NCBI GenBank assembly: GCA_038046765.1
Contig: JBBSVN010000006.1
Span: 1 to 64,000, forward strand
From: Candidatus Micrarchaeota archaeon
GTDB taxonomy: Archaea > Micrarchaeota > Micrarchaeia > Anstonellales > Bilamarchaeaceae
Reading direction: 5' to 3'
Length of the DNA stretch: 64,000 bases
How positions within the stretch are numbered: the first letter of the stretch is position 1; the number at the start of each line of letters is the position of its first letter. Both the position numbers and the translations under genes were made by a program. Under the pieces are notes generated by a model. It was not told the origin of the DNA, ran no database searches, and worked only from the letters and a program-made list of their open reading frames with translations. This document shows positions 4,131 to 35,045 of this stretch, in pieces.

Positions 4131-7100
4131 CTACCTTAACTTGTATATCTTAACAGCATTATCCTTTGTCTGATAAACTAAGTCAAATCCTTCGAGTTCA
4201 TTAAGGAAGAAACCCTTGTAAATATTGGAGTCATAGAAGTACGTACCACTATTTATCCGATCAGAGTAACCATCTACAACTTCCCCATTTTCAACCCACT
4301 TCTTTTCTTTAGTGTAAAACAGGACTGCAGCAGAGTATTGACCAGAATCAGCACAGTTAAAACCATCATTCGTATTACATACTCCTTTTATGAATGCTTT
4401 ATTTAATTTAAGATCGCCATTAGGGTAAGTTTGATTAAGATAGTACGTTACTTGCATCGTTTCTCCAGTTGCAAGAGTAGTATCTGCGATGCAGTAAGTT
4501 GGTTTAATTGAAAGGGATTTTACAGTCATCCCATTACTTTCTGGGACATATGAAAGTTTAAACGCAGTCACTCCTTGTTTACCAGTTGAAGCTGAAATAA
4601 CACAGGATTGTACATTTTCTTTTGGCACGTAAATTATTTCCCAACGATGATTAAATTCACAAATACTCGTACTTGGTTGATAACTCACATTTGTTTCATT
4701 ATTTCTTGAACAGGATAGGTAATTAAGGGCACCGAATTTACTACCAGTTAAGCCACCTAATACAATTTCCTGATCAAATAAAGCATAATTTGCACCAGTA
4801 TACTTCATGTAGTTTCTAAGCTCAGCAGTTGTACCAGCTACATAGTTATATGCAACTTCACCAATCATTTGAGTTGAAGAATGATCATTTCTAATTACTG
4901 CATTAACCTGACCAAAAAAGTTTTCCCAGTGACCGTAATCCCACCATGAGATTACACGAGAAGTCCTTGGAGTATTTGTTTTAAACCACTCCATGCTATC
5001 AATCCAATATTCTGGCATCCTCTGGCATCTAAAACCAGCACCTTGTCTTTGCTGATCTGAAGGATTATTGATATCTGAAATTAGTGAAACATAACAAAGT
5101 TTTTGATTATACTGATAATTGGTTCCTTGCGAAGCGTATTTTATTGGGTCTGCTGCAGCACCACAAATATCCGGATCAGCGCTACCAGATAATTTCATCT
5201 GATCGCAAATAAACTGGAACTTTGGTTGTAAAGCAACAGGATTATCCTGAAACCTTTGGTTAAATGAAACTGAAAGAATTGCAGGAAAAACACCGTCATG
5301 TGCAAACTGATTAATTATAAAGATTGCAGCAATGAGCAACATAATTACAGTTCCAACTGGTTTACCTAAAATGAATGATTTTGAGATTCGATTAATTAGT
5401 CCTTCAAGTTCTGCAAATGCAATTGCTGTTGCAAAAACCATAAAGAAACCAAAGTAAATAGTAAACTTGGCTTTAATTAGCCCCACGATAGTTGCAGGGA
5501 ATAAAGCTACAAACAAAATAACGATTGGATTAAACTCTTCTTTCTTAACAATTTTGTATATTGTGTATACAAGAGAGGCGAAGAAAAAGAAGAAGATAGT
5601 AGTCATGAAACTATTGGATTTTCCAGCAAATTGCAGATCAAGGTTAAAGACAAAATTAAGTAATAAAAATAAACCAGATATCAGATTATTAGTAATAAAC
5701 GCAAGTGGAGCAAAAATGACATCTAGAACAGGGTAAATAAAGTAGAATGGGTCTGTAGAAGATGACTGTGCATTAAAAACTAATGCAACTACGCCTAGTT
5801 GGTCTTCAAAACCATTTCCAGCTACACCCTGTTCTGCAATCGTCCTTTGTAGAGAATATTTAAACTCAGCTAAGCTAAGTTGAGATGCAAAACTATTTTT
5901 TATGTATCCGCCAAACGGAGTGAAAAAGAATATGCCCAAACCAAGAACAACAATTGCCCCCAGAATGTATAGCGAAGTTTCATTATCTTTGATAAAAGGC
6001 CTTATGTAATATAAAAGATAACTAAACGCAAGGACTAGAGTTAAAATTACAAAATTTTTATTTAATATATCTAGGCTAAAGTTATAGAAACCACTAAGTA
6101 AATGAGCTAATAATACACCAAATAAAAGAATAATCGCATTTAATTTTATAAAATTAAAGAAAACCAGATTGTCTTTTTCATTTAAGAAAAGAATTAACGA
6201 ATATATTGGAATAAAAATCATTAACACTGCTGCAGCCACAGTTGCCGAAGAACTACCTAAAACAAGCCCAGCATAGCCAACACATGCTAATGCCGCATAT
6301 TTTATTGACCTATTTTTTAACATAAGCGCATAAAATGCAAAGAAAATTGAAAGGGACAAAAAGGCAAATGGTTGTATTTCCATTTCACCTGCTGCAAATT
6401 TAATTAGGAATATTGGCATAAAAGCAATTAAACTTGCACTTAGAAGACCAAATTCTCTTTTATAGTAAGAAGATATAGCAAGATAGATAAAAAATGCCAA
6501 GAAAGCTGCTGCGAGGGGCGGATAAATATTTGCAATATCAGCTAGAAGATAATTGTTGTAAGCTCCGGTGCCTTGAGTATAAAATGAGTACCAGATTGCT
6601 TCCATGAAATGAGGCAACGGCGTAGTTCTATGATCAACAATTTTATCAGGAAACCATGCAGTCTGATCATTTATTGGATTTTGGCCAAAAGTTAGAATTT
6701 GTTGAGTAATATAAAGATAAAAGTAAGGATCAAGTTCATAGAACACGGGAGAGTATGATTGTACCCTAACCCAAAATGCCAAAAATATAATTACAATTAA
6801 GATTATTGGAACAATTAATTCTCTTGGATTTTTTAGTATGGAATCTATTGTAGGCATTGTAAATGAAATATTTTCATAAGCTTTTTGTTTTACGAAAAGT
6901 GCAATTGCAATAAGGTAAAAAATAGCAACGGAAATAATTGCAGTGTTAAAATTGAAAAGAACACCTGCCATGTTTAATAAAAATGCAAAAAATGCAGGAA
7001 TAAAAAATCCGATACCAAAGCCAATTAACAATTTTTCAATAAAATTTAACTCTTTCCTATTTTTAAAAATTGCAAAGGACAAAATTGCCCCGGGAAGAAA

Positions 7101-7154
7101 AGAAGTTAAAAAAATCCAAAATAAAAGAGAAAATAAATTAAATGAAATAATCAT
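4131..7154 (-). CDS. aglB: Oligosaccharyltransferase AglB/STT3
   Basis: Multi-TM N-terminal region with ELDPYF and TIAE motifs; catalytic WWDYG motif. Confidence 0.93.
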   Translation of the reverse strand: MIISFNLFSLLFWIFLTSFLPGAILSFAIFKNRKELNFIEKLLIGFGIGFFIPAFFAFLLNMAGVLFNFNTAIISVAIFYLIAIALFVKQKAYENISFTMPTIDSILKNPRELIVPIILIVIIFLAFWVRVQSYSPVFYELDPYFYLYITQQILTFGQNPINDQTAWFPDKIVDHRTTPLPHFMEAIWYSFYTQGTGAYNNYLLADIANIYPPLAAAFLAFFIYLAISSYYKREFGLLSASLIAFMPIFLIKFAAGEMEIQPFAFLSLSIFFAFYALMLKNRSIKYAALACVGYAGLVLGSSSATVAAAVLMIFIPIYSLILFLNEKDNLVFFNFIKLNAIILLFGVLLAHLLSGFYNFSLDILNKNFVILTLVLAFSYLLYYIRPFIKDNETSLYILGAIVVLGLGIFFFTPFGGYIKNSFASQLSLAEFKYSLQRTIAEQGVAGNGFEDQLGVVALVFNAQSSSTDPFYFIYPVLDVIFAPLAFITNNLISGLFLLLNFVFNLDLQFAGKSNSFMTTIFFFFFASLVYTIYKIVKKEEFNPIVILFVALFPATIVGLIKAKFTIYFGFFMVFATAIAFAELEGLINRISKSFILGKPVGTVIMLLIAAIFIINQFAHDGVFPAILSVSFNQRFQDNPVALQPKFQFICDQMKLSGSADPDICGAAADPIKYASQGTNYQYNQKLCYVSLISDINNPSDQQRQGAGFRCQRMPEYWIDSMEWFKTNTPRTSRVISWWDYGHWENFFGQVNAVIRNDHSSTQMIGEVAYNYVAGTTAELRNYMKYTGANYALFDQEIVLGGLTGSKFGALNYLSCSRNNETNVSYQPSTSICEFNHRWEIIYVPKENVQSCVISASTGKQGVTAFKLSYVPESNGMTVKSLSIKPTYCIADTTLATGETMQVTYYLNQTYPNGDLKLNKAFIKGVCNTNDGFNCADSGQYSAAVLFYTKEKKWVENGEVVDGYSDRINSGTYFYDSNIYKGFFLNELEGFDLVYQTKDNAVKIYKLR

Positions 7155-7195
7155 ATAGAACTACCTAGATATAATATTTTAGTTCAGCCAGTTAT

Positions 7196-8323
7196 TTATA
7201 GGTATTGTATGGTTGCAGTTTCAGATTCAAGGCTCATTGTTGGTTCATCCTTTTTTAGAATATTTGTGGATTTAACACCAGTAATTATTGCAGTTACGCG
7301 TATCTTATCAAATAACCCGCTATTTACTCTTGCACCAACTTTGACATTTGCCATGCTATCGAATTTTTCAGTAAGCTTTTCACCGATTTTGATACCATCG
7401 CCTAAAGTTAGGTCATCTCCACCTTCAATGTGAATGAGTGCACCTTTTGCTCCTTCATAATCAACATCAAGTAAGGGATGATCTAATGTATCCTTAATTA
7501 CCGCATCAACGCGGTTTACACCAGATGCTTCACCAAGGGAGATCATACTTAGTCCACCGCCATCCATAATAGAGCGAACATCTGCAAAATCGATGTTCAT
7601 AAGACTTGGGAACATAATTGTATCCGTAATACCAGTTACAGCTCTCCCAGTGATACTATCAGCTAATTCAAATGCCTTATCTAATGGAAGATTCGGAACA
7701 TACGTAGCTAACCGATTATTATCAATTACAATAAGAGTATCGCAAACAGCCATTAAGTTTCGTAATGCTTCGTGTGCCTTTTTGATCCTTACTCGCTCTA
7801 AGTTAAATGGATAAGTAACAATTCCAACTACTATCGCTCCTTGTTCTTTTACAATTCTTGCAACTACAGGAGCAGCACCGCCACCAGTTCCGCCGCCCAT
7901 ACCTGCGCAGATAAATACTAGTTCGTTTTCTCCTAATTCCTGTTTTAACATTGAAATATCAGATTCAGCGCATTTTCTAGCTACATCCATGCTTCCTCCG
8001 GCTCCTAACCCCCTAGTAATGTTTTTACCAAGTAAAATTCTTTTTGAGCATGAGACCATTCGTAGATGTTTTCCATCAGTATTTATTGCGACCGTTTTAG
8101 CGCTTTTTATTCCTTTTTTAGCGAGCCTATCAACACAGTTGCATCCTGCCCCACCTACACCAATAACGCTTATTCGTATACTACTAGAATCAATATCTTC
8201 AGTCTTTTGAGTTGCAGAATTTGCAGAAGTATTTGCAGAAGTTGCTTCACTTTGAACTTGTCCTGAATTAGTTTTTACACTTTCCCTTGCAGCCCTTAAA
8301 ATGTCATCAAACATAAAAAACAC
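7196..8323 (-). CDS. ftsZ: Cell division protein FtsZ
   Basis: GVGGAGCN, AINTD, GMGGGTGGG and NIDFADV tubulin/FtsZ signatures. Confidence 0.97.
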   Translation of the reverse strand: MFFMFDDILRAARESVKTNSGQVQSEATSANTSANSATQKTEDIDSSSIRISVIGVGGAGCNCVDRLAKKGIKSAKTVAINTDGKHLRMVSCSKRILLGKNITRGLGAGGSMDVARKCAESDISMLKQELGENELVFICAGMGGGTGGGAAPVVARIVKEQGAIVVGIVTYPFNLERVRIKKAHEALRNLMAVCDTLIVIDNNRLATYVPNLPLDKAFELADSITGRAVTGITDTIMFPSLMNIDFADVRSIMDGGGLSMISLGEASGVNRVDAVIKDTLDHPLLDVDYEGAKGALIHIEGGDDLTLGDGIKIGEKLTEKFDSMANVKVGARVNSGLFDKIRVTAIITGVKSTNILKKDEPTMSLESETATIQYL

Positions 8324-16247: not shown

Positions 16248-16382
16248 AATGATTTCACCTGTTAAACATCGTGATTGAAAATTTATTTTTAAGAATACGT
16301 TTTGAACATATTAAGAAGAGTAAATTTTTATAGGTTTGTAATAGATTTAGAATCAAGTAAAAAATAGACAAAAAAATTAGTA

Positions 16383-16466
16383 TGCAGGGGAAGAGATTCG
16401 AACTCTTGAAGGTACTAAACCACCAGCCCCTCAAGCTGGCGCATTTGGCCGCTCTGCCACCCCTGC
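16383..16466 (-). tRNA. tRNA-Leu(GAG)
   Basis: Reverse complement folds as a cloverleaf: GCAGGGG/CCCCTGC acceptor, CCAGC-TTGAGGG-GCTGG anticodon arm, long variable arm, GTTCGAATC T-loop. Confidence 0.96.
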
Positions 16467-16509
16467 ATTTGGATAAACTTATTACAAACTACTTTTCTCA
16501 AATAATTCT

Positions 16510-18810: not shown

Positions 18811-21573
18811 TTAATTCGTACCCACTTCAATAATTGCTATCTCGTCTTCTGTTAGTCCATAAAGTCCGTAAACTAAGCGATCTATTCTGCGGTTGATCTG
18901 TAAAATTTCTTTATCTAGCTTAGCACGTTCATCAGTATTCTTGTCCCCAATTTCCTCAAATCTCTTTTTCTTTGAAAGCACGTCCTTAACAAGTTCAATA
19001 AGATGGTCGGGACGAACCCCAGATGGGAGCGTTTTAATGGGAAGATTTCGGATGGCTTCTGGGTACACATGCAAATTACTACTAAGAATATGTTTAAAGT
19101 AGAAATTCAAGACTCTCGAGTTAATAAGTGCTAGACAGTAAAGTAAACTGTGCTTTGCAGAGTTTTCGAACATTTTGTCGGAAATCTTTTCCCCCTTTAT
19201 CGTTACATTACGCAGACTATTCCAGGGTACACAAAGACTTACGGTGTCATTTGTATAAAAATGTTCATCATCATACGCCGCTAACAATCCCTCGGATGTA
19301 GATATATTCCGGACAATTAATTTTTCGTTCTCGAAAAGTTCGGGAAATTTAGGTCTATGCATCATGGTAGGCTGATAATTAAGATATAACCCTCTCCAAA
19401 CTATTGAGTATCTCGACATATCCTTGCCTTCTATATAAGGCTTGAATGATTCACTTGTTTTTTTCTCAGATATTAGCCTGTCTTTTGATGCACCTGTTTT
19501 AGAATCGTGAGGTACGGCACCAATAACGATGTAGCATATTTCAGAAAGATTAACGCTCCCATGCGCGATTTTATCAATTAGTCTAATTTTCTTTTCATTC
19601 AGTTCAGTTCTTATTGTGCAACCTGGAGTAGAAAGGAACACGTTCTGTTTTATTGAAACTATATTCGTTCTTTCGAGAGATTCTAAACTTGTAGGTTTCA
19701 CAATCTTTATCGAATTGTTTTCAGCTGGTTTATTCTTCTGCAGAACTAAAACACAGGTATTAATCGCAGCAGCTTCAAAAACCTTAATATCAGACAGGTC
19801 TATTAGTGCGACTATTTTGAAATCATTTAATATCCATTCTCTAAGAATTTTTGAGTAATTTTGATTTAGAAAAGAAAAAGGGATTATAAATGAAAAATAC
19901 CCACCGCTTTTAAGTAATTTTAATGCACGTTCAATAAATAGGATATACAAATCAAATCTACCAAAGAACTTATCATATTTTTTTGATTCTAAGTAATATC
20001 TTCGTTCATTCTTTGGCATATTTTCGGGTCTAACATACGGGGGATTTCCAATTATTACATCAAAACCAGACCCATCTTTCAGTTTACCGTTTTCATCAAA
20101 TTGAATTATTTTACTAAATTCTTTGCTCCAATCAAAAGCCCGTAACCCCGCGACAGCTTGATCCTCAATTAGTGAGTTGCCACATTTTATATTCTCTCTT
20201 AAGTCTGGCAAGCGATGTTTTGTTTCTGCAGCTTTTAGCAGTAGGTTAAGTTGTGCAATTTCAACGGCCTTTAAATCCAAATCTACACCATAGATATTGT
20301 TTTTCAGAATTTTTGTTTTTCTAGTTAACTTTGCAGTTTCATTCTCAACGTCAAGTTTTGTTTGAGCGTAATCCTTCTCCTTCCTTTTGTAATAGCTGTC
20401 TAAGGTGTCGAATGCTTTAAGAAGAAAAGAACCAGAGCCGCATGCCATATCAAGTACTTTAATCGTATCGATGTCATCGGGCTTCTTGTGCTTTAATATT
20501 TCGCCAACTGTATTTTTAACAATATAATCTACTATATCTGTTGGCGTGTAATAAATGCCTTGCTCTTTTCGAGTTGATTGGAGGCGTCCGATATACCTTT
20601 CATACATCGAACCTAGAACATCAGCATCTATGTCATCAAATTTGTAGGAGTATATCTCATCCTTTTCGTATGTCTCCTTTAGTATTTTGTAATAAGTCGC
20701 ACTATCTATTTCAACATATTCACATTCGTGTCTTATTTTAGTATTCGATTCATCATAAGTGAAAAGCTTACTATCATAGATTAAGTCGTATTCCTTGAAC
20801 AGTTTTTTCAGACACTCCATTATGCTTATTGATTTATCTTTTTCATACTGATTTAAGATGGCAAGTATAGTTTCGTCAGGTTTGGCTTCATGTTTTCTAT
20901 CCTCCGCCGTACGAATAAAAATTATTCTATCAAGAAGCGTTTGAACGATTTCTTCCAGTTCTTCTTTTGAGTAATCCTTGCTATTGTTGTTCTTTATAGA
21001 GCTTTTTAGTCTCTGATGCCAGCCCCAGATATCATTGAGGAGTTCGTCATCTATTTTAACGGTTTTTTTTACCCTTCCTTCATCCTGAGCCTTTTTTTCG
21101 ATAAGATCGGTTTGGAAAGCTTCTTTTGAAATAAGAAGCAAATCATCCAAACGATGCTGTAATTCTGAATATGGGAACCGTCTAAAAACATGCTTCAGAA
21201 TAGAGGTCTCCTTAGTATCACATATAAGGATAATGGTTTCTTTGAAATTGGAAAGTACGGCCCACCTTTTATTTTTTGCTCGGCCATAATTTACCGCTTG
21301 TTTGAGATCTTTCTCAGTTAATTCTTGCACTTTTTTTGTTTCAAGAAAAAATGAAATATTCCCGTTCAAATAAAAAATATAATCTGGTCGACCATCCGGT
21401 TGGTTTACTTGCTCCTTTACTTCATTTAAATCACGGAAGTTCCAGCCTAATTGCGAAAAAAGCGGCTCGATATATACCCGGCAAACATCTCTCTCTGACT
21501 TTGGCTGATTCTGATTTTTGATAAAGTCTTCGGAAAGAAACTGAATTTCCTTCAAAAGAGATTCTTTATCCAT
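18811..21573 (-). CDS. Type IIG (Eco57I-like) fused restriction-modification enzyme
   Basis: N-terminal PD...ETK nuclease (HsdR_N-like), GIYYTP, LDMACGSGSFL, VIIGNPPY and a TaqI-like C-terminal TRD. Confidence 0.92.
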   Translation of the reverse strand: MDKESLLKEIQFLSEDFIKNQNQPKSERDVCRVYIEPLFSQLGWNFRDLNEVKEQVNQPDGRPDYIFYLNGNISFFLETKKVQELTEKDLKQAVNYGRAKNKRWAVLSNFKETIILICDTKETSILKHVFRRFPYSELQHRLDDLLLISKEAFQTDLIEKKAQDEGRVKKTVKIDDELLNDIWGWHQRLKSSIKNNNSKDYSKEELEEIVQTLLDRIIFIRTAEDRKHEAKPDETILAILNQYEKDKSISIMECLKKLFKEYDLIYDSKLFTYDESNTKIRHECEYVEIDSATYYKILKETYEKDEIYSYKFDDIDADVLGSMYERYIGRLQSTRKEQGIYYTPTDIVDYIVKNTVGEILKHKKPDDIDTIKVLDMACGSGSFLLKAFDTLDSYYKRKEKDYAQTKLDVENETAKLTRKTKILKNNIYGVDLDLKAVEIAQLNLLLKAAETKHRLPDLRENIKCGNSLIEDQAVAGLRAFDWSKEFSKIIQFDENGKLKDGSGFDVIIGNPPYVRPENMPKNERRYYLESKKYDKFFGRFDLYILFIERALKLLKSGGYFSFIIPFSFLNQNYSKILREWILNDFKIVALIDLSDIKVFEAAAINTCVLVLQKNKPAENNSIKIVKPTSLESLERTNIVSIKQNVFLSTPGCTIRTELNEKKIRLIDKIAHGSVNLSEICYIVIGAVPHDSKTGASKDRLISEKKTSESFKPYIEGKDMSRYSIVWRGLYLNYQPTMMHRPKFPELFENEKLIVRNISTSEGLLAAYDDEHFYTNDTVSLCVPWNSLRNVTIKGEKISDKMFENSAKHSLLYCLALINSRVLNFYFKHILSSNLHVYPEAIRNLPIKTLPSGVRPDHLIELVKDVLSKKKRFEEIGDKNTDERAKLDKEILQINRRIDRLVYGLYGLTEDEIAIIEVGTN

Positions 21574-21602: not shown

Positions 21603-22199
21603 TTATAATAACGCCAATTTCCCAGCTAATGTTATATGAAATTCTTTATCTACATATCCGTTATCTTTTAACTCTTTTAAATGTTGGTAAAGCATACCTC
21701 GCGTTCGTTCTAGCTTTTTGGCGATATCTGATATTGACTTATTCCCTCGTTTAGAAATTTCTTCAAGCAATTCACGCTTAATTGAGCTTAATCCAAAACT
21801 TAATTTAGGCAATTCAATTATTGAATTATTTTCAAGGTTATTGCAAATTATCTTTTCAACAAGTTCAGGTCTTGCATAGCAACCGTAAAGTACACCCTGA
21901 GCAAGTAATTTCCAACCGCCAGAAACATTAACGATTATTTTATTTTCTTTGTTTTCTTCTATAAGTTCAATAGTTTTAGATGCGATTTCAAGGAAATCCG
22001 AACCTTTAACTTTAACGATTACAATTTCGGAGACCTTTCCATAAACTTCTTTCACTTTAGATATGTCTTGGTTTACCTTTTCGTTCTTTAGACTATCCTC
22101 AGCTACGATCAATATCATCTTAGATGGTGAAAATGCATGCGCTGCAGCCACAAAGGGTTGGAATGAATAAAATGTCGATATAAGCACTGTGTCCGTCAT
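21603..22199 (-). CDS. CARF-like (Csa3/DUF6293-type) domain plus C-terminal wHTH regulator
   Basis: Rossmann-like VLISTF...MILIV...IIVNVSGGWK motif, then SISDIAKKLERTRGMLYQHLKELKDNGYV wHTH. Confidence 0.78.
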   Translation of the reverse strand: MTDTVLISTFYSFQPFVAAAHAFSPSKMILIVAEDSLKNEKVNQDISKVKEVYGKVSEIVIVKVKGSDFLEIASKTIELIEENKENKIIVNVSGGWKLLAQGVLYGCYARPELVEKIICNNLENNSIIELPKLSFGLSSIKRELLEEISKRGNKSISDIAKKLERTRGMLYQHLKELKDNGYVDKEFHITLAGKLALL

Positions 22200-23206
22200 A
22201 ATAATCGCCTTACTTCTTTCTCAAGTTCCTCTTTAGTTGGTAAGTATAATTTGTATTTCGAAATAAATAACTTGTTCGACATACCCGCAGTTGCAAATTC
22301 TACATGGACATTCTCTTTTTCGGTGCATAGGATAATTCCAATTGGTTCAGAATCATTTTCCTTGTTTATCTCTTTTTTCACGTAATTTAAGTAAAAATTC
22401 AATTGCCCCGCGTATTCTGGCTTAAAATTTCCAATCTTTAATTCAATAACTACGTAACATCTAAGATAAATATTGTAAAAAAGAAGGTCGATATAAAAAT
22501 GTTCATTAGCTAGTGTAATTCTTTTTTGCCTGGCTACAAAACTAAACCCCTGTCCAAGTTCAAGGAGAAATTTTTGAAGGTCGTTAAGTATTCTGCCTTC
22601 TAAATCCTTTTCAGCATATTCATGTTTTTCATCCAAATTTAGAAACTCTAGAACGTAAGGGTCTTTTATCAAATCCCCAGGCTTATCTGCAACACTGCCT
22701 TTTGAATCTAGTTTCATCAAAGCGGCTTTATCTTTGCTTAATAAGAGCCTTTCATAATGTAGGGAATAAATCTGTCTTTTTAGCTCTCTTACGCTTAAGT
22801 TTTCAGTTATTGCGTATTTTTCAAAGTATCTTCTTTTTAGTTCTTCATCTATTTTTATTAGTTCACAATAATGTGACCAAGTCAATTTAGGAGACACTGT
22901 CTCCCAATTTTGGTAAACAGAATAAAATCGCCTCATTTTACGAAGGTTGCTTGGGTCAAAACCCTTCCCAAATTCCCTATAAAGTTCTTTAGAAACAGTT
23001 TCAAGTAATTGTTCCCCATAAGCGGCTCTTTCCTCTCCTTTTTGTTCTTCTTCGACAATTTTTCTTCCTATTTCAAAATAAGCTTTTAGCATTTCTGTAT
23101 TGACTGCATAGAATGAATTATGACGTGCATTGTTTAGGATAATTTTAATGTCACGAATTAAAGAACCTACATTGTTTGAGGAAAAACTTCTTTCAGATTT
23201 TAGCAT
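22196..23206 (-). CDS. yhcG: YhcG/DUF1016 PD-(D/E)xK nuclease family protein
   Basis: LTWSHY, IKDPYVLEFL, FLLELGQGFSFVARQ, IDLLFY and IELK motifs; likely ATG at 23206. Confidence 0.92.
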   Translation of the reverse strand: MLKSERSFSSNNVGSLIRDIKIILNNARHNSFYAVNTEMLKAYFEIGRKIVEEEQKGEERAAYGEQLLETVSKELYREFGKGFDPSNLRKMRRFYSVYQNWETVSPKLTWSHYCELIKIDEELKRRYFEKYAITENLSVRELKRQIYSLHYERLLLSKDKAALMKLDSKGSVADKPGDLIKDPYVLEFLNLDEKHEYAEKDLEGRILNDLQKFLLELGQGFSFVARQKRITLANEHFYIDLLFYNIYLRCYVVIELKIGNFKPEYAGQLNFYLNYVKKEINKENDSEPIGIILCTEKENVHVEFATAGMSNKLFISKYKLYLPTKEELEKEVRRLL

Positions 23207-23276
23207 ATCTTCATTTAATATAGTTAAGCTTTTAATTCTTCTTGTACATAAAAACACTATACATTCTAGTTGAAAG

Positions 23277-23960
23277 ATGAAAAATATGTTTAAAGCAGTA
23301 CTTTTTGATTTAGATAATACTTTAATAGATTTCCTAACCTTCAAAAAGGAAACTGCAAAAGCAGCAGCTAAGGCAATGGTTGAACAAGGTTTGCCATTAA
23401 GCGAAGTTCAGGCTTATGGAAAAATATTCTCTGTTTATGATGAAAAAGGAATTGAATACCAGAAAACATTTTATGAAGTTGTAAAACCTTTTAATCTGGA
23501 AATAAACCAAGCAGAAAAAATCCAGCAAGCTGCGATTATCGCTTACTTGAAACGAAAATTTGAAATTTTAAGACCTTATTCGATGGTTAAACCAACACTA
23601 AAAAAATTAAGAGAAAAAGGTCTGAAGCTTGGAATTGTTACTGATGCACCAAGAAATAAAGCTTGGCAGAGACTAGTTATTACAAACTTAGAAAACGAAT
23701 TTGATTTTGTAATTACACATGATGATACGATGGAGAAAAAACCACATCCAACACCATTTTATTTAGCTTTACAGAAACTTAATTTATTAGCTCCAGCTTG
23801 TTTATTTGTTGGAGATAATCCAGAAAGGGATATTAAAGGAGCAGAGGAAATAGGAATGAAAACATGCTTAGCTAAGTACGGATTATGGAATAAACAAAAC
23901 GAAGTGAGAGCGGATTATGATATTGAGAAATTTGAAGATTTGATAGGAGTGGTTGTATGA
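23277..23960 (+). CDS. HAD-superfamily hydrolase
   Basis: FDLDNTL, IVTD, KKPHP and FVGDNPERDI motifs. Confidence 0.93.
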   Translation: MKNMFKAVLFDLDNTLIDFLTFKKETAKAAAKAMVEQGLPLSEVQAYGKIFSVYDEKGIEYQKTFYEVVKPFNLEINQAEKIQQAAIIAYLKRKFEILRPYSMVKPTLKKLREKGLKLGIVTDAPRNKAWQRLVITNLENEFDFVITHDDTMEKKPHPTPFYLALQKLNLLAPACLFVGDNPERDIKGAEEIGMKTCLAKYGLWNKQNEVRADYDIEKFEDLIGVVV

Positions 23961-24976
23961 TTGAAAAAAAATATTGGGCTATTTCTGCATCGGAAGGTGA
24001 TGAAAGAGACTTTTCAGAGATATTTTTTGACTTCGGAATTGCTTGTCTTGGTGGCAAGAATCAAAAGGAAATTGCAAAAAAAGTAAATGCAGGCGATTTA
24101 TTAGTTTTGAAAAAAAGCCGTGGGGATGGAACGTTTTTAATTCAGGCCATTGGTAGAATAATTAAAGCTTTTTCTCTAAACTCTTCTTTTGATGATGTTG
24201 AAGGTTGGAACCTAGACTTTGTTGCTGAGGTTGAATGGTATGCCTCTGGCACTGATGCTCCGGTAGAAGGCCTAAAACAGGGAACAATTTTTTCTATTAA
24301 TAAGGACTCTCCAAAACAGATAGCCGAAAACATTCTTGCACAGGGAAATCGCATTATTCAAAAAAACAAACTTTCAAATCTTCCGAACATTAAATTTCTG
24401 GAGCAGGAAAAACTTTTGAGTTTTTTAATCCAAAATGGATTGAGTTCAACTTATGCTGAGAACTTATCCAGTGCTATAAACCGAGTTAAAAGATTGGCGC
24501 TTTACTATAATGACATTTTAGATAAAAATGATTATAGAAAAGAACACTTACCAACAGAAGACGAAACGCGTGCCTTTCTAGTATTGCCTTTGTTGTTTTC
24601 TTTGGGCTGGTCTGAACAACGCATTCGATTAGAAATAAAAACCGACAAAGGTGGAGAAGTGGATATTGCACTTTACAAAAAACCTCACGAACTAGGAGAT
24701 TCTATTGCCCCCTATGCGATCATTGAAGTTAAGAGGCTTACAAAAGGTTTAGAAAGAGCAAAGAAGCAAGTAATGAATTATTTTGAATGCTATCCTAGTT
24801 GCAAAAGATGTATAGTAACCAACGGATTTTCATATAAAGTATGGGAACGAGGAAAGCCAGATTTTACTGCTTACTTGAATATAACCAAGATGCTTGATGG
24901 CTATCGTTTTAAGGGTGGCGTTGGTGGCGCCCAAGAAGTTTTCAGGGCATTATTACCCCCAGAGTATTCTGAGTGA
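23957..24976 (+). CDS. Putative restriction nuclease: N-terminal PUA/EVE-like domain plus HsdR_N-like PD-(D/E)xK domain
   Basis: N-terminus YWAIS...VNAGDLLVLK...IQAIGRI...VEW; C-terminus TEDETR...PLLFSLGW...VDIALY...IIEVKR...IVTNG. Confidence 0.65.
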   Translation: MIEKKYWAISASEGDERDFSEIFFDFGIACLGGKNQKEIAKKVNAGDLLVLKKSRGDGTFLIQAIGRIIKAFSLNSSFDDVEGWNLDFVAEVEWYASGTDAPVEGLKQGTIFSINKDSPKQIAENILAQGNRIIQKNKLSNLPNIKFLEQEKLLSFLIQNGLSSTYAENLSSAINRVKRLALYYNDILDKNDYRKEHLPTEDETRAFLVLPLLFSLGWSEQRIRLEIKTDKGGEVDIALYKKPHELGDSIAPYAIIEVKRLTKGLERAKKQVMNYFECYPSCKRCIVTNGFSYKVWERGKPDFTAYLNITKMLDGYRFKGGVGGAQEVFRALLPPEYSE

Positions 24977-26436
24977 TGTTTATGGTCTCAATAACAGGTT
25001 ACGGCGGAGTTAACGAAATAGGCGGAAACAAGTTCGTCATTCAGGATGAAAAATCCAAAATAATGCTTGACTTTGGTTTAAGCTTTGGAACAGCAAATAA
25101 ATACCTTGATGAATACCTCCAACCAAGAAAACTAAATGGTCTAGGAGATTACTATGAATTAGGTCTTCTTCCGCAATTAAAAGGAATTTACCGTGAAGAT
25201 TACATTAAGCACATGGGAAACCCGGAAGAACCTTTGGAATACGATGCATTATTCTTAACTCACGCTCATGCTGACCATGCTTCTTATGTTCATTTTCTAA
25301 GAGCTGATTTGCCGATTTACGGCTCCCCAGAAACTCTAGCAATAATGAAAAGCATTGAGGATACTGGTTCAACTGCAAACCTTGACTTAATCACATTAAC
25401 AAAAAGTTTTCAGCAGGGAAAAACCAGAGATGGAAGACCAAAAAGATTAGATGCAAGAGAACCTGGAATGATTGTTAAAAGGCCAATAAACAAAATGAAC
25501 GGAAAGGTAAACATCGGAGATTTTGAAATAGAATCAATAACTGTAAATCATTCTCTTTTAGGTGCTACTGCATTTGTAATAAAAAATCCAAAAGGAGATA
25601 TAGCATTTAGCGGAGATGTAAGATTTCATGGGAGAGGGGGGCATTTTACAGAAAATTTTGTCAAAAAAGCAAGGAACGTAAAATATCTAATGATTGAAGG
25701 AACAAGAATCGATAAACAGGATACTAAATCAGAGGTACAAGTTGAAGCTGAAATCCGTTCGATTATAAGAAATACAAAAGGTTTGGTTTTAGCAAACTGG
25801 CCTTCTAGAGATACGGATAGACTCTGGTCTTTTTACAATGCAACAGTACAGAACGATCGGAAATTAGTTATTTCATCAAAACAGGCTTATTTAATTGAAG
25901 AGCTTGCAAAAGAAGGAGCTGATGTTCCAAACATAAATAGCGACCATATTCGAATATTTGTCTCAAGAAAATACTGGGGATTTTTAGGGAGCAGTGCCAG
26001 CAAAGAAGAAATAGAAAAAGATTATGCATATGCAAAATGGGAAATTCCTTATCTTTATCATAAAAATATGGTAAGTTACAAAGAACTAAAAAATGACTAT
26101 TCCAAGTATGTTTTAAGGGCCGATCTATTTGATATGACGGAATTAATTGATATCAAACCACCAGAAAATTCAATTTACATCAGGTCAGTCGTTGAACCTT
26201 TTGATGATGAAATGAAAGTTTCAGAAGAAAAATTAGGTAACTGGTTAAAGCATTTCAAATTAGAAAAAGTGCAAACCCATTGTTCAGGTCATGCTCCAGG
26301 CCCCGATCTCTTAAGAATTGTTGATGAAATTAACCCAGAATTTGTAATCCCAATACATACGACTCACCCGGAAAAGTTCAGAGACTTAGGTCCAAAATGG
26401 ATTAACCCGGAAGTTGGAAAGAAGATTGAAATTTAG
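24973..26436 (+). CDS. MBL-fold/beta-CASP nuclease (RNase J-like, defence-island type)
   Basis: GGVNEIGGN, LDFG, THAHADH, NHS, SGD, IEGT, HCSGH and PIHT motifs. Confidence 0.85.
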   Translation: MMFMVSITGYGGVNEIGGNKFVIQDEKSKIMLDFGLSFGTANKYLDEYLQPRKLNGLGDYYELGLLPQLKGIYREDYIKHMGNPEEPLEYDALFLTHAHADHASYVHFLRADLPIYGSPETLAIMKSIEDTGSTANLDLITLTKSFQQGKTRDGRPKRLDAREPGMIVKRPINKMNGKVNIGDFEIESITVNHSLLGATAFVIKNPKGDIAFSGDVRFHGRGGHFTENFVKKARNVKYLMIEGTRIDKQDTKSEVQVEAEIRSIIRNTKGLVLANWPSRDTDRLWSFYNATVQNDRKLVISSKQAYLIEELAKEGADVPNINSDHIRIFVSRKYWGFLGSSASKEEIEKDYAYAKWEIPYLYHKNMVSYKELKNDYSKYVLRADLFDMTELIDIKPPENSIYIRSVVEPFDDEMKVSEEKLGNWLKHFKLEKVQTHCSGHAPGPDLLRIVDEINPEFVIPIHTTHPEKFRDLGPKWINPEVGKKIEI

Positions 26437-26709: not shown

Positions 26710-26949
26710 ATGGTCAATGAAACACCAGTGGGTAAATCCGAGACGAGAAGCGAACGCTTCAAACGGGTAGCTGAAAAAAGGACGCGAAAAATTCTCAATG
26801 AAATTCGTATCTTAAGTAATTGTTCAAATCGTTCAGTGTATGAGTATACTGAAGATGACCTAAACAAAATATTCGGAGCAATCGACGAAGCAGTTAAACA
26901 AGCAAAATCAAAATTTTCAGGTGATAAAAAAATAGAATTTAAACTTTAG
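26710..26949 (+). CDS. Small helical hypothetical protein
   Basis: 79 aa, ETRSERFKRVAEKRT...LSNCSNRSVYEY; first gene of the co-oriented TGT-TIR cluster. Confidence 0.75.
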   Translation: MVNETPVGKSETRSERFKRVAEKRTRKILNEIRILSNCSNRSVYEYTEDDLNKIFGAIDEAVKQAKSKFSGDKKIEFKL

Positions 26950-26985
26950 AATACATCGAGCATTCATCGCTGCGCTAACAGCATC

Positions 26986-27990
26986 GTGCTCGAAGATTCA
27001 GTGATATATATGTCCTATCCCGCAATGTATAAAAATCTTAGTATTAGTAATTCCGAAGAACTAGTAGATGTTTCGTTGTCACTTCCTAAAGCGTTGGTAC
27101 CCGTTATAAAATTAACCGAAATTAGTACCTATTCTCCTTGGGATCATATAAATTGCCAAGCTGTTTTTGTTCGCATGCAAGATTTATTACAAAACAATGG
27201 CAAAAATTTCAATAAGACCTACGAAAAAATTTGCAATGCAGATGGATTCCATAATTTTCTTGGATATAATCGCAAGATCTTCCTTTCAACAATAATGCGT
27301 GACAAGACCTTGTTTGGTTGTAGCGTTGACATGTATACTGAACTTATTCGTAATCTCAAGCCAGATTATTTTATGACTTTGGATTGTGAAACTTATGAAG
27401 GAGAAAATAACCTTGCTGAAAACGAACTTTATCGGGTACTTCGAGAATCAAAGGAAATCATAACTAAATGCAGTAACAGTTCCCCCATCGGTTTAGTCAA
27501 GGGTGCGTGTTTATCTCAAATTCAAGAGTATTCGTATGCCTTATCACTCATGAATATAAAACAAATGATATTCCATATCGGTGATTTTTTGTATCGTGGT
27601 GATAATCTAATGATTGAAAAGGCTCGTCGATATGCAAGTACTATTAGAACTAATTGTGAAACTCTTGCTTTGTATGGAATTGGCTCGCAATGTCATTTCA
27701 GAAAATTCTACTTTGCAGATGCATTCATAACTCAAAGTCATTATGTAAATGCATTTTATGGGCAGGCGTTCTTTAATGGTAAATGGCATCCCTGCCATCG
27801 TAAAGTCGACACAAAACTTATAATGAGTAATCTTCGTGAGATGAATCAATCTCTAGAGGAAATAGATAAACATAAACAAAGAGGATTGATACAATGGGCG
27901 GAGGCACCAGAGCAGATAGACAGTCCTACGCTACTTCCAGACTTGGAGGTGCAGAGGCGCATGCAAAAGACAACAATTTTCGGAGTTTGA
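26986..27990 (+). CDS. tRNA-guanine transglycosylase (TGT)-fold protein with degenerate active site
   Basis: Collinear TGT motifs: LVPV, GFHNFLGYNRKIFLS (cf. GLHxFMGWxGPILTDSGG), DYFMTLD (cf. DIxMxFD), IGLVKG (cf. GIVQG), LYGIG (cf. LMGVG), DAFI (cf. DMFD). Start may be a downstream Met. Confidence 0.72.
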   Translation: MLEDSVIYMSYPAMYKNLSISNSEELVDVSLSLPKALVPVIKLTEISTYSPWDHINCQAVFVRMQDLLQNNGKNFNKTYEKICNADGFHNFLGYNRKIFLSTIMRDKTLFGCSVDMYTELIRNLKPDYFMTLDCETYEGENNLAENELYRVLRESKEIITKCSNSSPIGLVKGACLSQIQEYSYALSLMNIKQMIFHIGDFLYRGDNLMIEKARRYASTIRTNCETLALYGIGSQCHFRKFYFADAFITQSHYVNAFYGQAFFNGKWHPCHRKVDTKLIMSNLREMNQSLEEIDKHKQRGLIQWAEAPEQIDSPTLLPDLEVQRRMQKTTIFGV

Positions 27991-28397
27991 ATAACTACAA
28001 TGAAGGGGTAAAACCAAGAGTTTTTATTAGTTTTCACATTGAAAACGAATCTCAGGTTAATCTTCTAAGGTATCAATCTAAGACTTCAGATAAGCTTGAA
28101 TTTACTGATTACTCTGTTAAAGAACCTTTTGATGAAGCTTGGAAAACACAGTGTACTGAAAGAATACGGCAATCAAGTGTCGTAGTTGTTGTGATAGGTG
28201 AGGAAACTCATACACGGGAAGCGGTTCTCTGGGAGATAAGAAAAGCACATGAGCTAGGTAAACCTGTGATCGGAATGCGCATTCATAGTGATAAAAATCA
28301 TTCAGTTCCAGAACCAATGCTTGAACATGGAGATAAAGTAATTCCATGGAATCTTGATAGACTACAAAACGAGCTCGACAGTCAAGTAAACAACTGA
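27894..28397 (+). CDS. TIR domain protein (ThsB/DUF1863-like) with N-terminal MGGG extension
   Basis: RVFISF, DYSV, IRQSSVVVVVIG and WEI catalytic Glu; GAGG SD at 27881. Confidence 0.88.
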   Translation: MGGGTRADRQSYATSRLGGAEAHAKDNNFRSLNNYNEGVKPRVFISFHIENESQVNLLRYQSKTSDKLEFTDYSVKEPFDEAWKTQCTERIRQSSVVVVVIGEETHTREAVLWEIRKAHELGKPVIGMRIHSDKNHSVPEPMLEHGDKVIPWNLDRLQNELDSQVNN

Positions 28398-28407
28398 GGC
28401 GATTTAA

Positions 28408-28851
28408 ATGGTTAAAACAGACCCAACCTTGTTAAGGCAATATGAACTTCTGGTTAATTCGGCAATTCAAATTACTGAATGGCGGCAAACCACAAATAGT
28501 TTTTATCTTACAGTTAATACTACGCTCTTAGCTGTAGCTTCTTATCTATTTGGTTCTTCTCCCCCCACGGTTCAGGTTATTGGTATTATTGGATTTATTA
28601 TATCTTTCCTTTGGTACCAGAACATAACCTACTTTCGGAATCTAAACAGTGCCAAGTTTAAAGTAATTCACACTCTTGAGAAGAAACTACCAGTACAGAT
28701 GTTCAAATTGGAAGAGGATATTTTCAAAAAAGAAAAGGGTCAATACGCTACTCAAATCGAAAGATGGACTCCATTATTATTTGTTTTAGCATATGGACTA
28801 GTATTAATTATTCAGCTTATGTCTGAGTTAATCAAAATAGTAAAATTTTGA
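28408..28851 (+). CDS. Small multi-TM membrane effector (RipA/8xMP-like)
   Basis: QYELLV...RQTTNSFYLTVNT...LW...YFRNLNSAKFKVIHTLEKKLP; 2-3 hydrophobic helices; follows the TIR gene. Confidence 0.75.
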   Translation: MVKTDPTLLRQYELLVNSAIQITEWRQTTNSFYLTVNTTLLAVASYLFGSSPPTVQVIGIIGFIISFLWYQNITYFRNLNSAKFKVIHTLEKKLPVQMFKLEEDIFKKEKGQYATQIERWTPLLFVLAYGLVLIIQLMSELIKIVKF

Positions 28852-28852
28852 G

Positions 28853-29275
28853 GTGGGTATTATGAAAAATGCGCATATAATTTTGTTATTTTTAGCGTTG
28901 TTTTTATTTGGTTGTGGCGACAAGTTCAAACCAAGTGTAGAATTTCAATTGGACAAATATAGCATAGATGTAAATAATGGCAATATTTCCAGCTACGTAA
29001 CCGCGACAATAATTAGAAATGATAATAATCCGACTCCAACTGAATTTACATTAAAGTTTGATAACAAAGCTGACATATATGCTGTTGATGGAAAAGGGAA
29101 TATAATTAAAACTCTTAATACAAGGATATTACAAGGAACGGGGGCAAAAGACACCATCCAATTTAAAATATTTGGTAAAACCAACCTTGCGAGTGGTTCT
29201 GACATATTAAATATTGTTTTAGATTGGAACAGTACAACGATTGATTCCAGAGCTATAACTGTCAATGTCAAGTGA
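28853..29275 (+). CDS. Predicted lipoprotein, beta-rich (Ig-like)
   Basis: Signal peptide with lipobox-like LFGC. Confidence 0.7.
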   Translation: MGIMKNAHIILLFLALFLFGCGDKFKPSVEFQLDKYSIDVNNGNISSYVTATIIRNDNNPTPTEFTLKFDNKADIYAVDGKGNIIKTLNTRILQGTGAKDTIQFKIFGKTNLASGSDILNIVLDWNSTTIDSRAITVNVK

Positions 29276-34022: not shown

Positions 34023-35045
34023 TTAGTTTTCCATAAAATAACTAGGGACATCATTTTCGTATAATAGCGTGCAACCCTTGCTTTCTGCATCAACCCGTTT
34101 CATAAGCTGCCATACTCCAGATTTAGTTTTTACTGCTACCGTGTGCCACGGGGTACCGTAGTTCGTATTTTCTGGAATTATATTTATTGGTACACGATCG
34201 TTTATTACAGCAGCTCTATGCACACTAAGCCGAATTGCATTTGGAAACTGCGCCTTAAGATAATCAGAATATGCCCTATTTCTGCGCATCATTTGTATTG
34301 CAATTTTTTTGCCAATTCGTTTAAGTTCTTCGCAGCCAGTAAGCCCATCATCAGAATCTTGAGCCCAAAATCTAGCTAGACCTACGTACCCATCTCGCAC
34401 TTCTTTAATCGTTTCAATTTCATGCCTGATCGATTCTATAGATTGAGAATAATTTGCATCAAGTATTCGCCAGATGGAGTAATGTTCCAAGTCGGATAAT
34501 GAATTGAGATTATCAAACCACTTTATTATTTGACGATCGGATAGGCGATTATACAGATTAAGATATAGATTGATGATATTTTGCATATACGTAAAAACAG
34601 CAGAATTATCGATGCCAACGATATCTGCGTAAGTAAACCCATCTAAAGCAACGATGAGTTCTGCGTCCCCATCAGTTGCATCCTTGATTTTAACACCAAA
34701 ATCATATAATGATTTAAGTGCAAGCTCTTCCCCCTTATCCGCAAGCGAACCGATAACTTTTGTCCGTTGATTTTTAGATTTAAAGGGAAAGGCCGGAAGA
34801 ACGAACTGTACTGGACTTCGATCACAAAAACTCATATCAATTTTGCGCGAGATATTGGTAATTGCAATCGCTTCTTCCTTTGGATCGACATAAGGTATAC
34901 GAATCTGGGCTAGTGCACTCATAATCAGCTTAGATTTTGATGCATGGCTAAAGCTAGATGTAAATTTTTGAGCAAACATAGATAAACACCTAGATTTGAT
35001 TTGGTTTTTGAACTTCCCGCAGGATAGTGCTCCGGCTAACACCAA
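34023..35045 (-). CDS. L-Tyr/L-Trp isocyanide (isonitrile) synthase, PvcA/Dit1/IsnA family
   Basis: FVLPAFPFKS, KVIGSLADKGEELAL, DG, RNRAYS, AIRLSVH and TPWH motifs; start uncertain. Confidence 0.88.
   Translation of the reverse strand: MVLAGALSCGKFKNQIKSRCLSMFAQKFTSSFSHASKSKLIMSALAQIRIPYVDPKEEAIAITNISRKIDMSFCDRSPVQFVLPAFPFKSKNQRTKVIGSLADKGEELALKSLYDFGVKIKDATDGDAELIVALDGFTYADIVGIDNSAVFTYMQNIINLYLNLYNRLSDRQIIKWFDNLNSLSDLEHYSIWRILDANYSQSIESIRHEIETIKEVRDGYVGLARFWAQDSDDGLTGCEELKRIGKKIAIQMMRRNRAYSDYLKAQFPNAIRLSVHRAAVINDRVPINIIPENTNYGTPWHTVAVKTKSGVWQLMKRVDAESKGCTLLYENDVPSYFMEN

Follow-up and report, generated by a model that had tools for sequence, protein, structure and literature searches.

In the type IV cyclic oligonucleotide-based antiphage signalling system (CBASS), Cap9 conjugates 7-amido-7-deazaguanine to Gly2 of the cyclase, the N-terminus of which has the sequence M(G/S)G(G/S)GG, and Cap10, which has a tRNA-guanine transglycosylase (TGT) fold without a zinc site, binds the adduct through D73, S74, D122 and K154 and has D248 and H226 as catalytic residues (Wassarman et al. 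2025, bioRxiv 10.1101/2025.04.06.647259). According to the same preprint, defence by this system requires Cap9, NDG, D73 and D248 of Cap10 and the glycine motif, and it is not yet settled what Cap10 does or to which target the proposed transfer of deazaguanine is directed. Thoeris operons that contain cap9, cap10 and cap11 are described, together with AF3 models of ThsB, Cap10 and Cap9, in the available part of a second preprint (Yirmiya et al. 2025, bioRxiv 10.64898/2025.12.03.692087), which also describes type V Thoeris, in which ThsB is combined with the three-helix membrane effector ThsF/DUF2270 and 3'-cyclic ADP-ribose (3'cADPR) is the signal. In QatABCD, as far as the accessible part of the report goes, the QueC-like protein QatC is combined with QatB, which has an essential N-terminal MGTS motif (PMC13279940). 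A cassette that resembles each of these systems in part is present in a stretch of 64,000 nucleotides (positions 1 to 64,000 of contig JBBSVN010000006.1, hereafter called the window) of the genome of a Candidatus Micrarchaeota archaeon (assembly GCA_038046765.1). It encodes a 334-aa TGT-fold protein (26986..27990), a 167-aa ThsB-type Toll/interleukin-1 receptor (TIR) protein that starts with a glycine motif (27894..28397) and a 147-aa small membrane protein of the 8xMP family (28408..28851), all on the forward strand. The genome has a TFIIB match of 98 bits, in line with its archaeal origin; among 14 control genomes, this family has matches in the four archaea only. The original prediction placed four co-oriented open reading frames (ORFs) at 26710 to 28851, in agreement with the ORF list of the window, in which five co-oriented ORFs lie within 26710-29275.

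The 334-aa protein, the ORF of which starts with GTG, is predicted to have the TGT (beta/alpha)8 fold. Its AlphaFold2 (AF2) model, made with a 20-sequence alignment, has a mean predicted local distance difference test (pLDDT) score of 81.7, with the core (residues 30-300) above 90 and residues 1-30 and 300-334 at low values. The best matches of this model in the PDB by Foldseek are all TGTs (Z. mobilis TGT, E ~5e-10), and VIA-align places archaeosine TGT (ArcTGT, 1iq8_A) at rank 1 with a Z of 26.6 and a root-mean-square deviation of 2.8 over 277 residues, the values of Z being 21.9 for QTRT2 (6fv5) and for bacterial TGT and 20.8 for DpdA. The TGT fold that had been proposed from the motifs is therefore confirmed by the comparison of the model with TGT, QTRT2, DpdA and Cap10, and the protein is nearer to ArcTGT than to Cap10. 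The protein has no Pfam match at E<=0.1, the TGT family PF01702 included, and it matches the PADLOC TGT model PDLC00912 only marginally (E 0.0025). The distant members of its family give only sub-threshold matches to PF01702, but reach 3e-11 with the PADLOC TGT model; these scores hint at, and do not prove, a continuum between the family and Cap10-like proteins. Among the distant members (P0108, P0114; P0104, P0105, P0111, P0112, P0115, P0118 and P0126), some are fused to a calcineurin-like metallophosphoesterase, and another distant subgroup has a Cys-rich N-terminus, some of its members having a C-terminal CxCxxC that resembles the zinc site of TGT.

The TGT-fold protein is interpreted as a pseudoenzyme with a conserved pocket, in which the base-reading Asp is kept and both transglycosylase Asps and the zinc site are gone. 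The wider profile A5, in which the distant relatives are included, matches ArcTGT at E 3.5e-5 over 264 positions, and the motifs were mapped through this alignment and the strand ends of the model, not directly onto Cap10. D133 aligns with the base-recognising Asp of 'FLD' of ArcTGT, K172 with the Gln of 'IQG' and Y230-G231-x-G233 with 'FGAG'. The first Asp of 'VDLFDS' of ArcTGT aligns with D245 and the second with I248, ArcTGT carries its 'DSG' as an insertion adjoining S101, and nothing in the protein corresponds to the CxCxxC zinc segment; the positions at the TGT catalytic Asps are thus L100/S101 and I248. In 71 representatives of the family (50% identity, at least 250 aa), D133 and Y137 are conserved without exception, only I, V, A, M or L occurs at position 248, and no sequence has Asp at position 100. 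S101 and H197 are conserved in 68 of them, K172 in 67, D106 in 66, D200 in 62 and D245 in 60. The loss of the zinc site and of both catalytic Asps leaves the protein unable to catalyse base exchange. The motif assignment of the original prediction (TGT motifs in order, base-reading Asp kept, both catalytic Asps and zinc site lost) is borne out by the alignment with ArcTGT and by the 71 representatives. The protein shares the TIM-barrel fold with QTRT2 and ArcTGT and, like QTRT2, is apparently a TGT fold without catalysis. Unlike these two proteins, it has no zinc site, lacks the C-terminal domains of ArcTGT, and is encoded in a defence operon and not together with a catalytic TGT partner.

An alternative ATG at 27010 would give a protein of 326 aa, which is the length of the homologue P0003. 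The public gene call (P0001, 271 aa) begins at Met64 and is probably too short, because the conserved residues P39, V62 and R63 precede its start. The last 35 residues of the TGT-like protein overlap the start of the TIR protein, have low model confidence and are found in only part of the family; the two ORFs overlap by 97 nt in differing frames.

The TIR protein matches ThsB_TIR (PF08937) over residues 44-134 (28023-28295) at E 8e-18 and the PADLOC ThsB model at 7.8e-16, and its TIR profile matches the ThsB structures 8fz9, 8wcf, 6lhy and 9b7d. The Glu of 'WEI' is E114 (28233-28235), which is kept in 13 of the 13 homologues that cover this position in alignment A4. E114 aligns with the Glu of 'YEI' in ThsB 6LHY, which is taken here to be the catalytic Glu of ThsB, so that E114 is putatively catalytic. 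The putative catalytic Glu had been correctly picked out, whereas the extension that precedes the TIR domain, given as 38 aa, is about 41 aa long. The ATG of the TIR gene at 27894 is preceded by the sequence GAGGA, which resembles a ribosome-binding site (RBS), 8 nt upstream and by an in-frame stop codon 18 nt upstream, and the N-terminal tail motif occupies 27894..27932 on the forward strand. An alternative TTG start at 27987, which overlaps the upstream stop codon, was rejected; the MGGG start is conserved in 23 loci.

These loci come from a search for relatives of the TGT-like gene, which gave 18 metagenome loci, 4 of 401 sampled genomes of the phylum and 6 named archaeal genome records. 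One of them (L039) is on the same contig as L016, and another (L036) resembles L002; with each counted once, 26 distinct loci are known besides the window. The contig ends before the next gene is readable in four of them (L002/L036, L018, L028 and L029). In all 23 readable loci, namely 22 and the window, the gene next downstream of the TGT-like gene encodes a Gly-tailed protein. These loci belong to several archaeal phyla, and the TGT-like proteins of the relatives are 31-72% identical to that of the window. The named carriers are Bathyarchaeota, Methanosarcinales, Woesearchaeota and GW2011_AR20. The family is patchy, being present in 5 of the 401 sampled genomes of the phylum, and a first profile search of genome contigs (A1) and one of viral contigs (A2) give no relatives. 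PDLC00912 has two weak matches in the 401 genomes, both to this TGT-like family and none to a true Cap10. The observation behind the original prediction is real and far beyond chance.

The consensus of the tail in the 22 readable relatives and the window is M-G-G-G-x-R-(G/A)-x-R-x-x-Y-A. G2 and G3 are conserved in all 23 loci, G4 in 22, R6, R9 and Y12 in 21 each, G7 in 18 and A13 in 15. The sequence MGGG is present in all loci except L041, which has MGGS, and positions 5 and 6 are x-R, whereas they are G-G in the type IV CBASS motif. The start codon of the tailed gene is ATG in 15 loci, TTG in four and GTG in four, a GGAGG-like RBS precedes most starts, and the distance to the upstream in-frame stop codon, examined in 17 loci, is 0-51 nt in 16 of them and 162 nt in L004. 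The MGGG start is not an artefact of the overlap, because the TGT-like gene of many loci (~267 aa) ends before it. The prediction that the TIR protein starts at MGGG with a conserved N-terminal Gly thus holds, as judged by the RBS, the upstream stop codon and G2. The charge of residues 2-16 of the tail is +1 to +7. Tail variants are present in L015, L032 and L033, and were compared by eye with the pocket residues of the TGT-like proteins in alignment A2, the cases being few.

The tailed protein is a ThsB-type TIR in 20 of the 23 loci, assigned in four by Pfam, in 14 by alignment (37-88% identity) and in two (L038 and L040) by the start 'RVFISFH' only. In locus L008, it is a CBASS oligonucleotide cyclase (NF041117 at 5e-85, 285 bits against a cut-off of 200; SMODS in Pfam), which is followed by a Cap17-like effector. 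The operon at 1837-4741 of L008 thus consists of genes for a member of the dead-TGT family, a cyclase with the tail VGGGTRGKRHRYAG and the Cap17-like effector, and no QueC-like gene is present within this 10.6-kb locus. This makes it a relative of type IV CBASS without Cap9. At 2334-4020 of L010, the tail is on a 178-aa protein of no known family, behind which a 98-aa ORF and a gene for a DUF4209 protein are located, and at 6913-7590 (reverse strand) of L032 it is on a 225-aa protein of no known family; these may be further cargo or effector types. These results indicate that the TGT-like protein and the tail are a transferable pair, because the pair stays while the attached signal enzyme changes, and tie the module to the logic of type IV CBASS, because in L008 this pair goes with a genuine CBASS cyclase. 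Judged from the sequences, the TGT-like gene and the tail would form a Cap10-like regulatory module. The analogy with type IV CBASS in the original proposal is well supported, whereas its specific deazaguanine part is not. The loci are flanked by restriction-modification (RM) systems, GmrSD and integrases. Tyrosine-recombinase genes of the phage integrase family are located directly upstream of the cassette in L006 (162-1103), L011 (712-1707, reverse strand) and L037 (4769-5931, split in two), which suggests that the cassette moves on small integrative elements.

The protein encoded downstream of the TIR gene matches 8xMP (PF24838) at E 5e-28, with 98 bits against a cut-off of 30, over positions 1-135 of the 136 of the profile, in agreement with the earlier assignment to an 8xMP-like membrane protein. 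Its AF2 model has four helices (pLDDT 81.6), and its strongly hydrophobic segments are 55-73 and 117-145. 8xMP is present in all 15 TIR loci that extend far enough, the other five TIR loci ending too early. Its gene follows directly downstream on the same strand in 13 of these 15 loci and has the opposite orientation in the two others, L006 and L011. The predicted co-occurrence of genes for a TGT-like protein, a TIR protein and a transmembrane protein is thus found in the relatives as well. In L006 and L015, a second, untailed TIR is encoded beside 8xMP. 8xMP is presumed to be the effector of the system.

Comparison with type IV CBASS gives likenesses and differences. In both, a TGT-fold accessory without a zinc site is encoded beside a signal-making enzyme, the unstructured N-terminal extension of this enzyme starts with Met-Gly-Gly-Gly, and the loci are found in defence islands and occur in archaea; L008 even has a tailed CBASS cyclase. 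Unlike type IV CBASS, however, the cassette has no Cap9/QueC in its loci or carrier genomes, its TGT-like protein has no counterparts of D73 and D248 of Cap10 and a fold that is closer to that of ArcTGT, at a Z of 26.6, than to that of Cap10, at 16.3, its signal enzyme is usually a TIR (the tailed gene of the window does not encode a cGAS/DncV-like nucleotidyltransferase), and its tail runs xRGxRxxY, whereas the CBASS tail is Gly/Ser-rich. The short ThsB-type TIR with a putative catalytic Glu is a feature of Thoeris, and 8xMP, which adjoins it in 15 of 15 informative loci, would be the counterpart of the Thoeris effector. The Thoeris operons with cap9, cap10 and cap11 likewise combine a ThsB-type TIR, an effector and a TGT-like accessory, and the available part of the preprint proposes that they work as type IV CBASS does. 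As described there, these operons keep cap9 (and cap11) and are bacterial, with an example from Pseudomonadales, whereas the cassette is archaeal and Cap9-less, has 8xMP as the effector, and has a TGT-like protein that is, to judge from its residues, catalytically dead in contrast to theirs. A family of the OGG/Cap11 type is not among the Pfam matches of the scanned neighbour ORFs, and the term 8xMP does not occur in the available text of that preprint, which lists 29 putative effector classes. Type V Thoeris, as presented in the same text, is similar to the cassette in having a short ThsB TIR and a small membrane protein of several helices for which oligomerisation is expected, but the effector of the cassette belongs to PF24838 and not to PF10028, and the cassette has an additional TGT-like partner and a tailed TIR. 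QatABCD, in the part of its description that is accessible, is also an immune system that rests on the N-terminal Gly motif of a partner and on proteins derived from the deazaguanine pathway; it is the mirror image of the cassette, because Qat has a QueC-like protein without TGT and the cassette a TGT-like protein without QueC.

A candidate new defence system, as the original prediction had it, is therefore an overstatement, because the available part of the preprint of Yirmiya et al. (2025) already describes and models Thoeris with cap9, cap10 and cap11. The cassette is a variant and not a new kind, since type IV CBASS and these Thoeris operons are already in print, and a version of the scheme with a TIR has been published as a prediction. 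What is new is the Cap9-less variant with a dead TGT, no description of which is found in literature searches that covered the Yirmiya preprint outside its supplements. A literature search for papers that join SMODS, QueC, TGT and OGG gave only the Wassarman preprint as relevant.

The reading preferred here, for which the chances are judged to be about even, is that the cassette is a three-gene, Thoeris-like archaeal abortive-infection system, in which the dead TGT would hold the unmodified TIR tail and the signal of the TIR would open the membrane effector. The TGT-fold protein, as a Cap10-like partner, would bind the tail GGGxRGxRxxY and thereby control the activity of the TIR. As CdnD is inactive when complexed with Cap10, the TIR would by analogy be kept inactive through this binding as long as no infection occurs; upon infection, the TIR would be released or activated and would produce a signal derived from nicotinamide adenine dinucleotide. 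This signal would then activate 8xMP, probably with membrane damage as the result. The tail would be recognised without deazaguanylation. The predicted complex of the TGT-like protein and its tailed partner gives weak support to the first of these steps, with a score of 0.51 against 0.01 for the best of three controls; at least 67% of contacts are shared between the runs, and the partner has a pLDDT of 64 or more. In the benchmark, 116 of 157 solved complexes reach the mark, as do 2 of 215 mismatched pairs, and the passes that score 0.60 or less comprise 18 of the 157 solved complexes and both passing mismatches, counts that hold only roughly for this complex, for which its own alignments were used.

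Several points weigh against this reading. The support from the predicted complex is weak and comes without a contact list, and its pass may reflect the likeness to the solved Cap10-CdnD complex. Kinship with Cap10 in particular is unproven, because the Z of Cap10 (9ntn_B) in VIA-align, 16.3, is no better than that of generic TIM barrels, which reach 16.4. The close-family profile A2 matches nothing among PDB sequences at E<=10, and phmmer with the distant member P0114 gives no match in the PDB, so that a direct residue alignment to Cap10 is not available; hhalign of A2 with three bacterial-type TGTs of order-level relatives gives a probability of only 13.6%. The net charge of the TGT-like proteins, -1 to +17, would suit nucleic-acid binding as well, and keeps a role in nucleic-acid sensing alive. 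8xMP has no solved relative by phmmer against the PDB, its best Foldseek match has an E of 0.81, and literature searches on the 8xMP/RipA family gave nothing relevant and no demonstrated function. The absence of QueC applies to the scanned ORFs of the loci and to carrier genomes that may be incomplete. Glycines conserved so strictly at the very start of the protein would be expected of a modified N-terminus, and argue for some modification. Finally, Cap9, NDG and D248 and D73 of Cap10 are essential in type IV CBASS, and the cassette, which is without them, may work on a different principle.

The best surviving of the other explanations, which is nevertheless fairly unlikely, is canonical deazaguanylation. 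Gly2 would receive an NDG-like 7-deazaguanine adduct from an enzyme with its gene elsewhere (a host ligase that has gone unrecognised, the metabolite pathway of a symbiotic host or a virus-encoded QueC), and the pocket of the TGT-like protein would read this adduct as Cap10 does. The invariance of G2 and G3 and the near-invariance of G4, which resemble the type IV CBASS acceptor M(G/S)G(G/S)GG, agree with this explanation, as do D133, kept in 71 of 71 representatives, and K172, which is located at the position of the base-reading Lys of Cap10 and the Gln of TGT. QatB, another partner of a QueC protein, also needs its N-terminal Gly motif, according to the accessible part of its description (PMC13279940). 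However, past GGG the tail is rich in Arg and Tyr, whereas that of the CBASS cyclases is Gly/Ser-rich, and housekeeping QueC is not known to accept proteins. No QueC is present among the 126 ORFs of the window and loci given to Pfam, a subset of the ORFs of each locus. The genome of the window (G000; 1.52 Mb in 20 contigs, 89.7% complete) has three matches to PF06508, which are GuaA (GMP synthase), a TtuA-like PP-loop protein and ThiI; all are outside the window, in line with the earlier statement that the window has no QueC. None of 21 genomes, namely G000 and 20 relatives, has a match above the cut-off to the QueC equivalog TIGR00364, the best score being 35 bits against 150, and the same holds for the five other carriers, which have only partial PP-loop matches to PF06508. 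QueC is thus above the cut-off in none of six carriers, one of which is a record titled as a complete genome (L039).

The genome of the window also has no PF01702 TGT and no PTPS/QueD match, and TGT is present in none of 12 relatives of the same family and in three of eight of the same order. A housekeeping TGT is present in four of the five other carriers, the exception being the record titled as a complete genome. The Bathyarchaeota genomes that hold L037 and L038 (G403 and G404) have a 541-543-aa frame that matches TGT at E 1e-83 to 1e-87 and no QueC above the cut-off, for which incompleteness, salvage or a divergent QueC could be responsible. Absence from incomplete genomes is no proof, yet six of six carriers without QueC are hard to square with a Cap9-type step. 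The supply of QueC in trans, which the original prediction had allowed for, is therefore disfavoured, and the tail is most likely recognised without deazaguanylation, as the preferred reading has it, because neither the loci nor the carrier genomes have QueC or Cap9.

A clearly unlikely explanation is that the dead TGT is a sensor of a viral ligand, which would be a guanine or modified base flipped from viral nucleic acid or a free 7-deazaguanine made by the virus. This ligand would displace the Arg-rich tail, an autoinhibitory pseudo-substrate, and thereby free the TIR. The fold is nearest to those of nucleic-acid-binding TGTs (Z of 26.6 for ArcTGT and 20.8 for DpdA, against 16.3 for the remodelled Cap10), the net charge of the TGT-like proteins reaches +17, and the pocket residues are conserved despite the loss of catalysis, all in favour of a sensor. 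Viruses make 7-deazaguanine DNA, and a deazaguanine base would be a non-self signal in the host lineage of the window, because this lineage has no deazaguanine synthesis. However, as to the ligand this explanation is pure inference, deazaguanines may not be foreign to the four of five other carriers that have a housekeeping TGT, and sensing alone does not explain the invariance of the first three glycines. A related possibility, to which only a slight chance is given, is that the TIR tail plugs the relic guanine pocket of the dead TGT, either with its free Gly N-terminus or with an Arg guanidinium that mimics the guanine edge against D133, and that a viral ligand empties the pocket. This ligand would be a flipped base or 7-deazaguanine base in viral nucleic acid, or free deazaguanine produced by viral enzymes in hosts that do not make it. 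If this were true, Cap10-type proteins would be at root tail clamps and sensors, and the deazaguanylation of type IV CBASS would be a later add-on. That the tail serves to target or assemble the enzyme, for instance at the membrane or the effector, and that the role of the TGT-like protein is unrelated, is hardly probable at all, because, although the tail is basic and the usual partner of the TIR is a membrane protein, the tail is also present on the CBASS cyclase of L008, the Cap17-like effector of which has no membrane-family match, and on the L010 and L032 cargo without 8xMP, and goes with the TGT-like gene in all 23 loci, whereas the TIRs beside 8xMP in L006 and L015 include untailed ones.

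The preferred reading of the cassette as a three-gene system leaves two ORFs at its borders. The 79-aa ORF (26710..26949, forward strand) has no Pfam or NCBIfam match and falls only into unnamed clusters of a protein atlas. It may be the first gene of the operon, but is not a core gene, because among the related loci only L001 has a homologue, at the same position. The 140-aa lipoprotein-like ORF (28853..29275, forward strand) has no family match and no counterpart downstream in L001 or the other loci, and is probably outside the system. The 11 sequencing runs considered for expression are all DNA metagenomes, with no RNA run listed among them. The cassette is surrounded by a defence island with a type IIG RM system (18811-21573), a CARF-wHTH regulator (21603-22199, reverse strand), a YhcG/PDC-S02 nuclease (22196-23344), and HSDR_N-like and metallo-beta-lactamase (MBL)/RMMBL proteins. 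The island described in the original prediction is thus present, by virtue of the RM system, the YhcG/PDC-S02 nuclease and the CARF-wHTH regulator, but its anchoring to a tRNA gene is not confirmed: tRNA-Leu (16382-16467) is 10 kb off, no integrase is encoded between it and the cassette, and no att-like direct repeat is present at 15.5-31 kb.

The 339-aa HSDR_N-like and 487-aa MBL/RMMBL proteins are encoded just upstream of the cassette (23957-26436) with a 4-nt overlap, and may be a separate two-gene nuclease module; an RMMBL fragment is present at the equivalent place in L001 (414-722). The CARF-wHTH gene of the window is located 4.8 kb upstream of the cassette. Homologous CARF(Csa3-like)-wHTH proteins (34-35% identity, E 1e-30 to 7e-33) are encoded in L016 (7240-7824), L018 (707-1291) and L041 (4779-5378), in each case on the reverse strand, divergently and adjoining the cassette upstream. 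They could be linked regulators or mere common neighbours in archaeal defence islands. A protein of the DIT1_PvcA family (34023-35045, reverse strand, E 2e-53), which is isonitrile-synthase-like and related to pyoverdine/dityrosine biosynthesis, is unexpected in a small archaeal genome.

The cassette separates tail recognition from deazaguanylation and from transglycosylase chemistry. In nature, the archaeal family represents a minimal version: Cap9 and the catalytic Asps are missing and at least two carriers are without a host deazaguanine pathway, yet the tail is strictly kept, and the pair is used with both TIR and CBASS cargo. If the cassette defends its host, the binding of the tail by a TGT fold, and not base transfer, would be the conserved core of this regulatory principle. 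In that case, 8xMP would join the effectors of Thoeris, and tail-regulated TIR signalling would extend to DPANN, Bathyarchaeia and Methanosarcinales.

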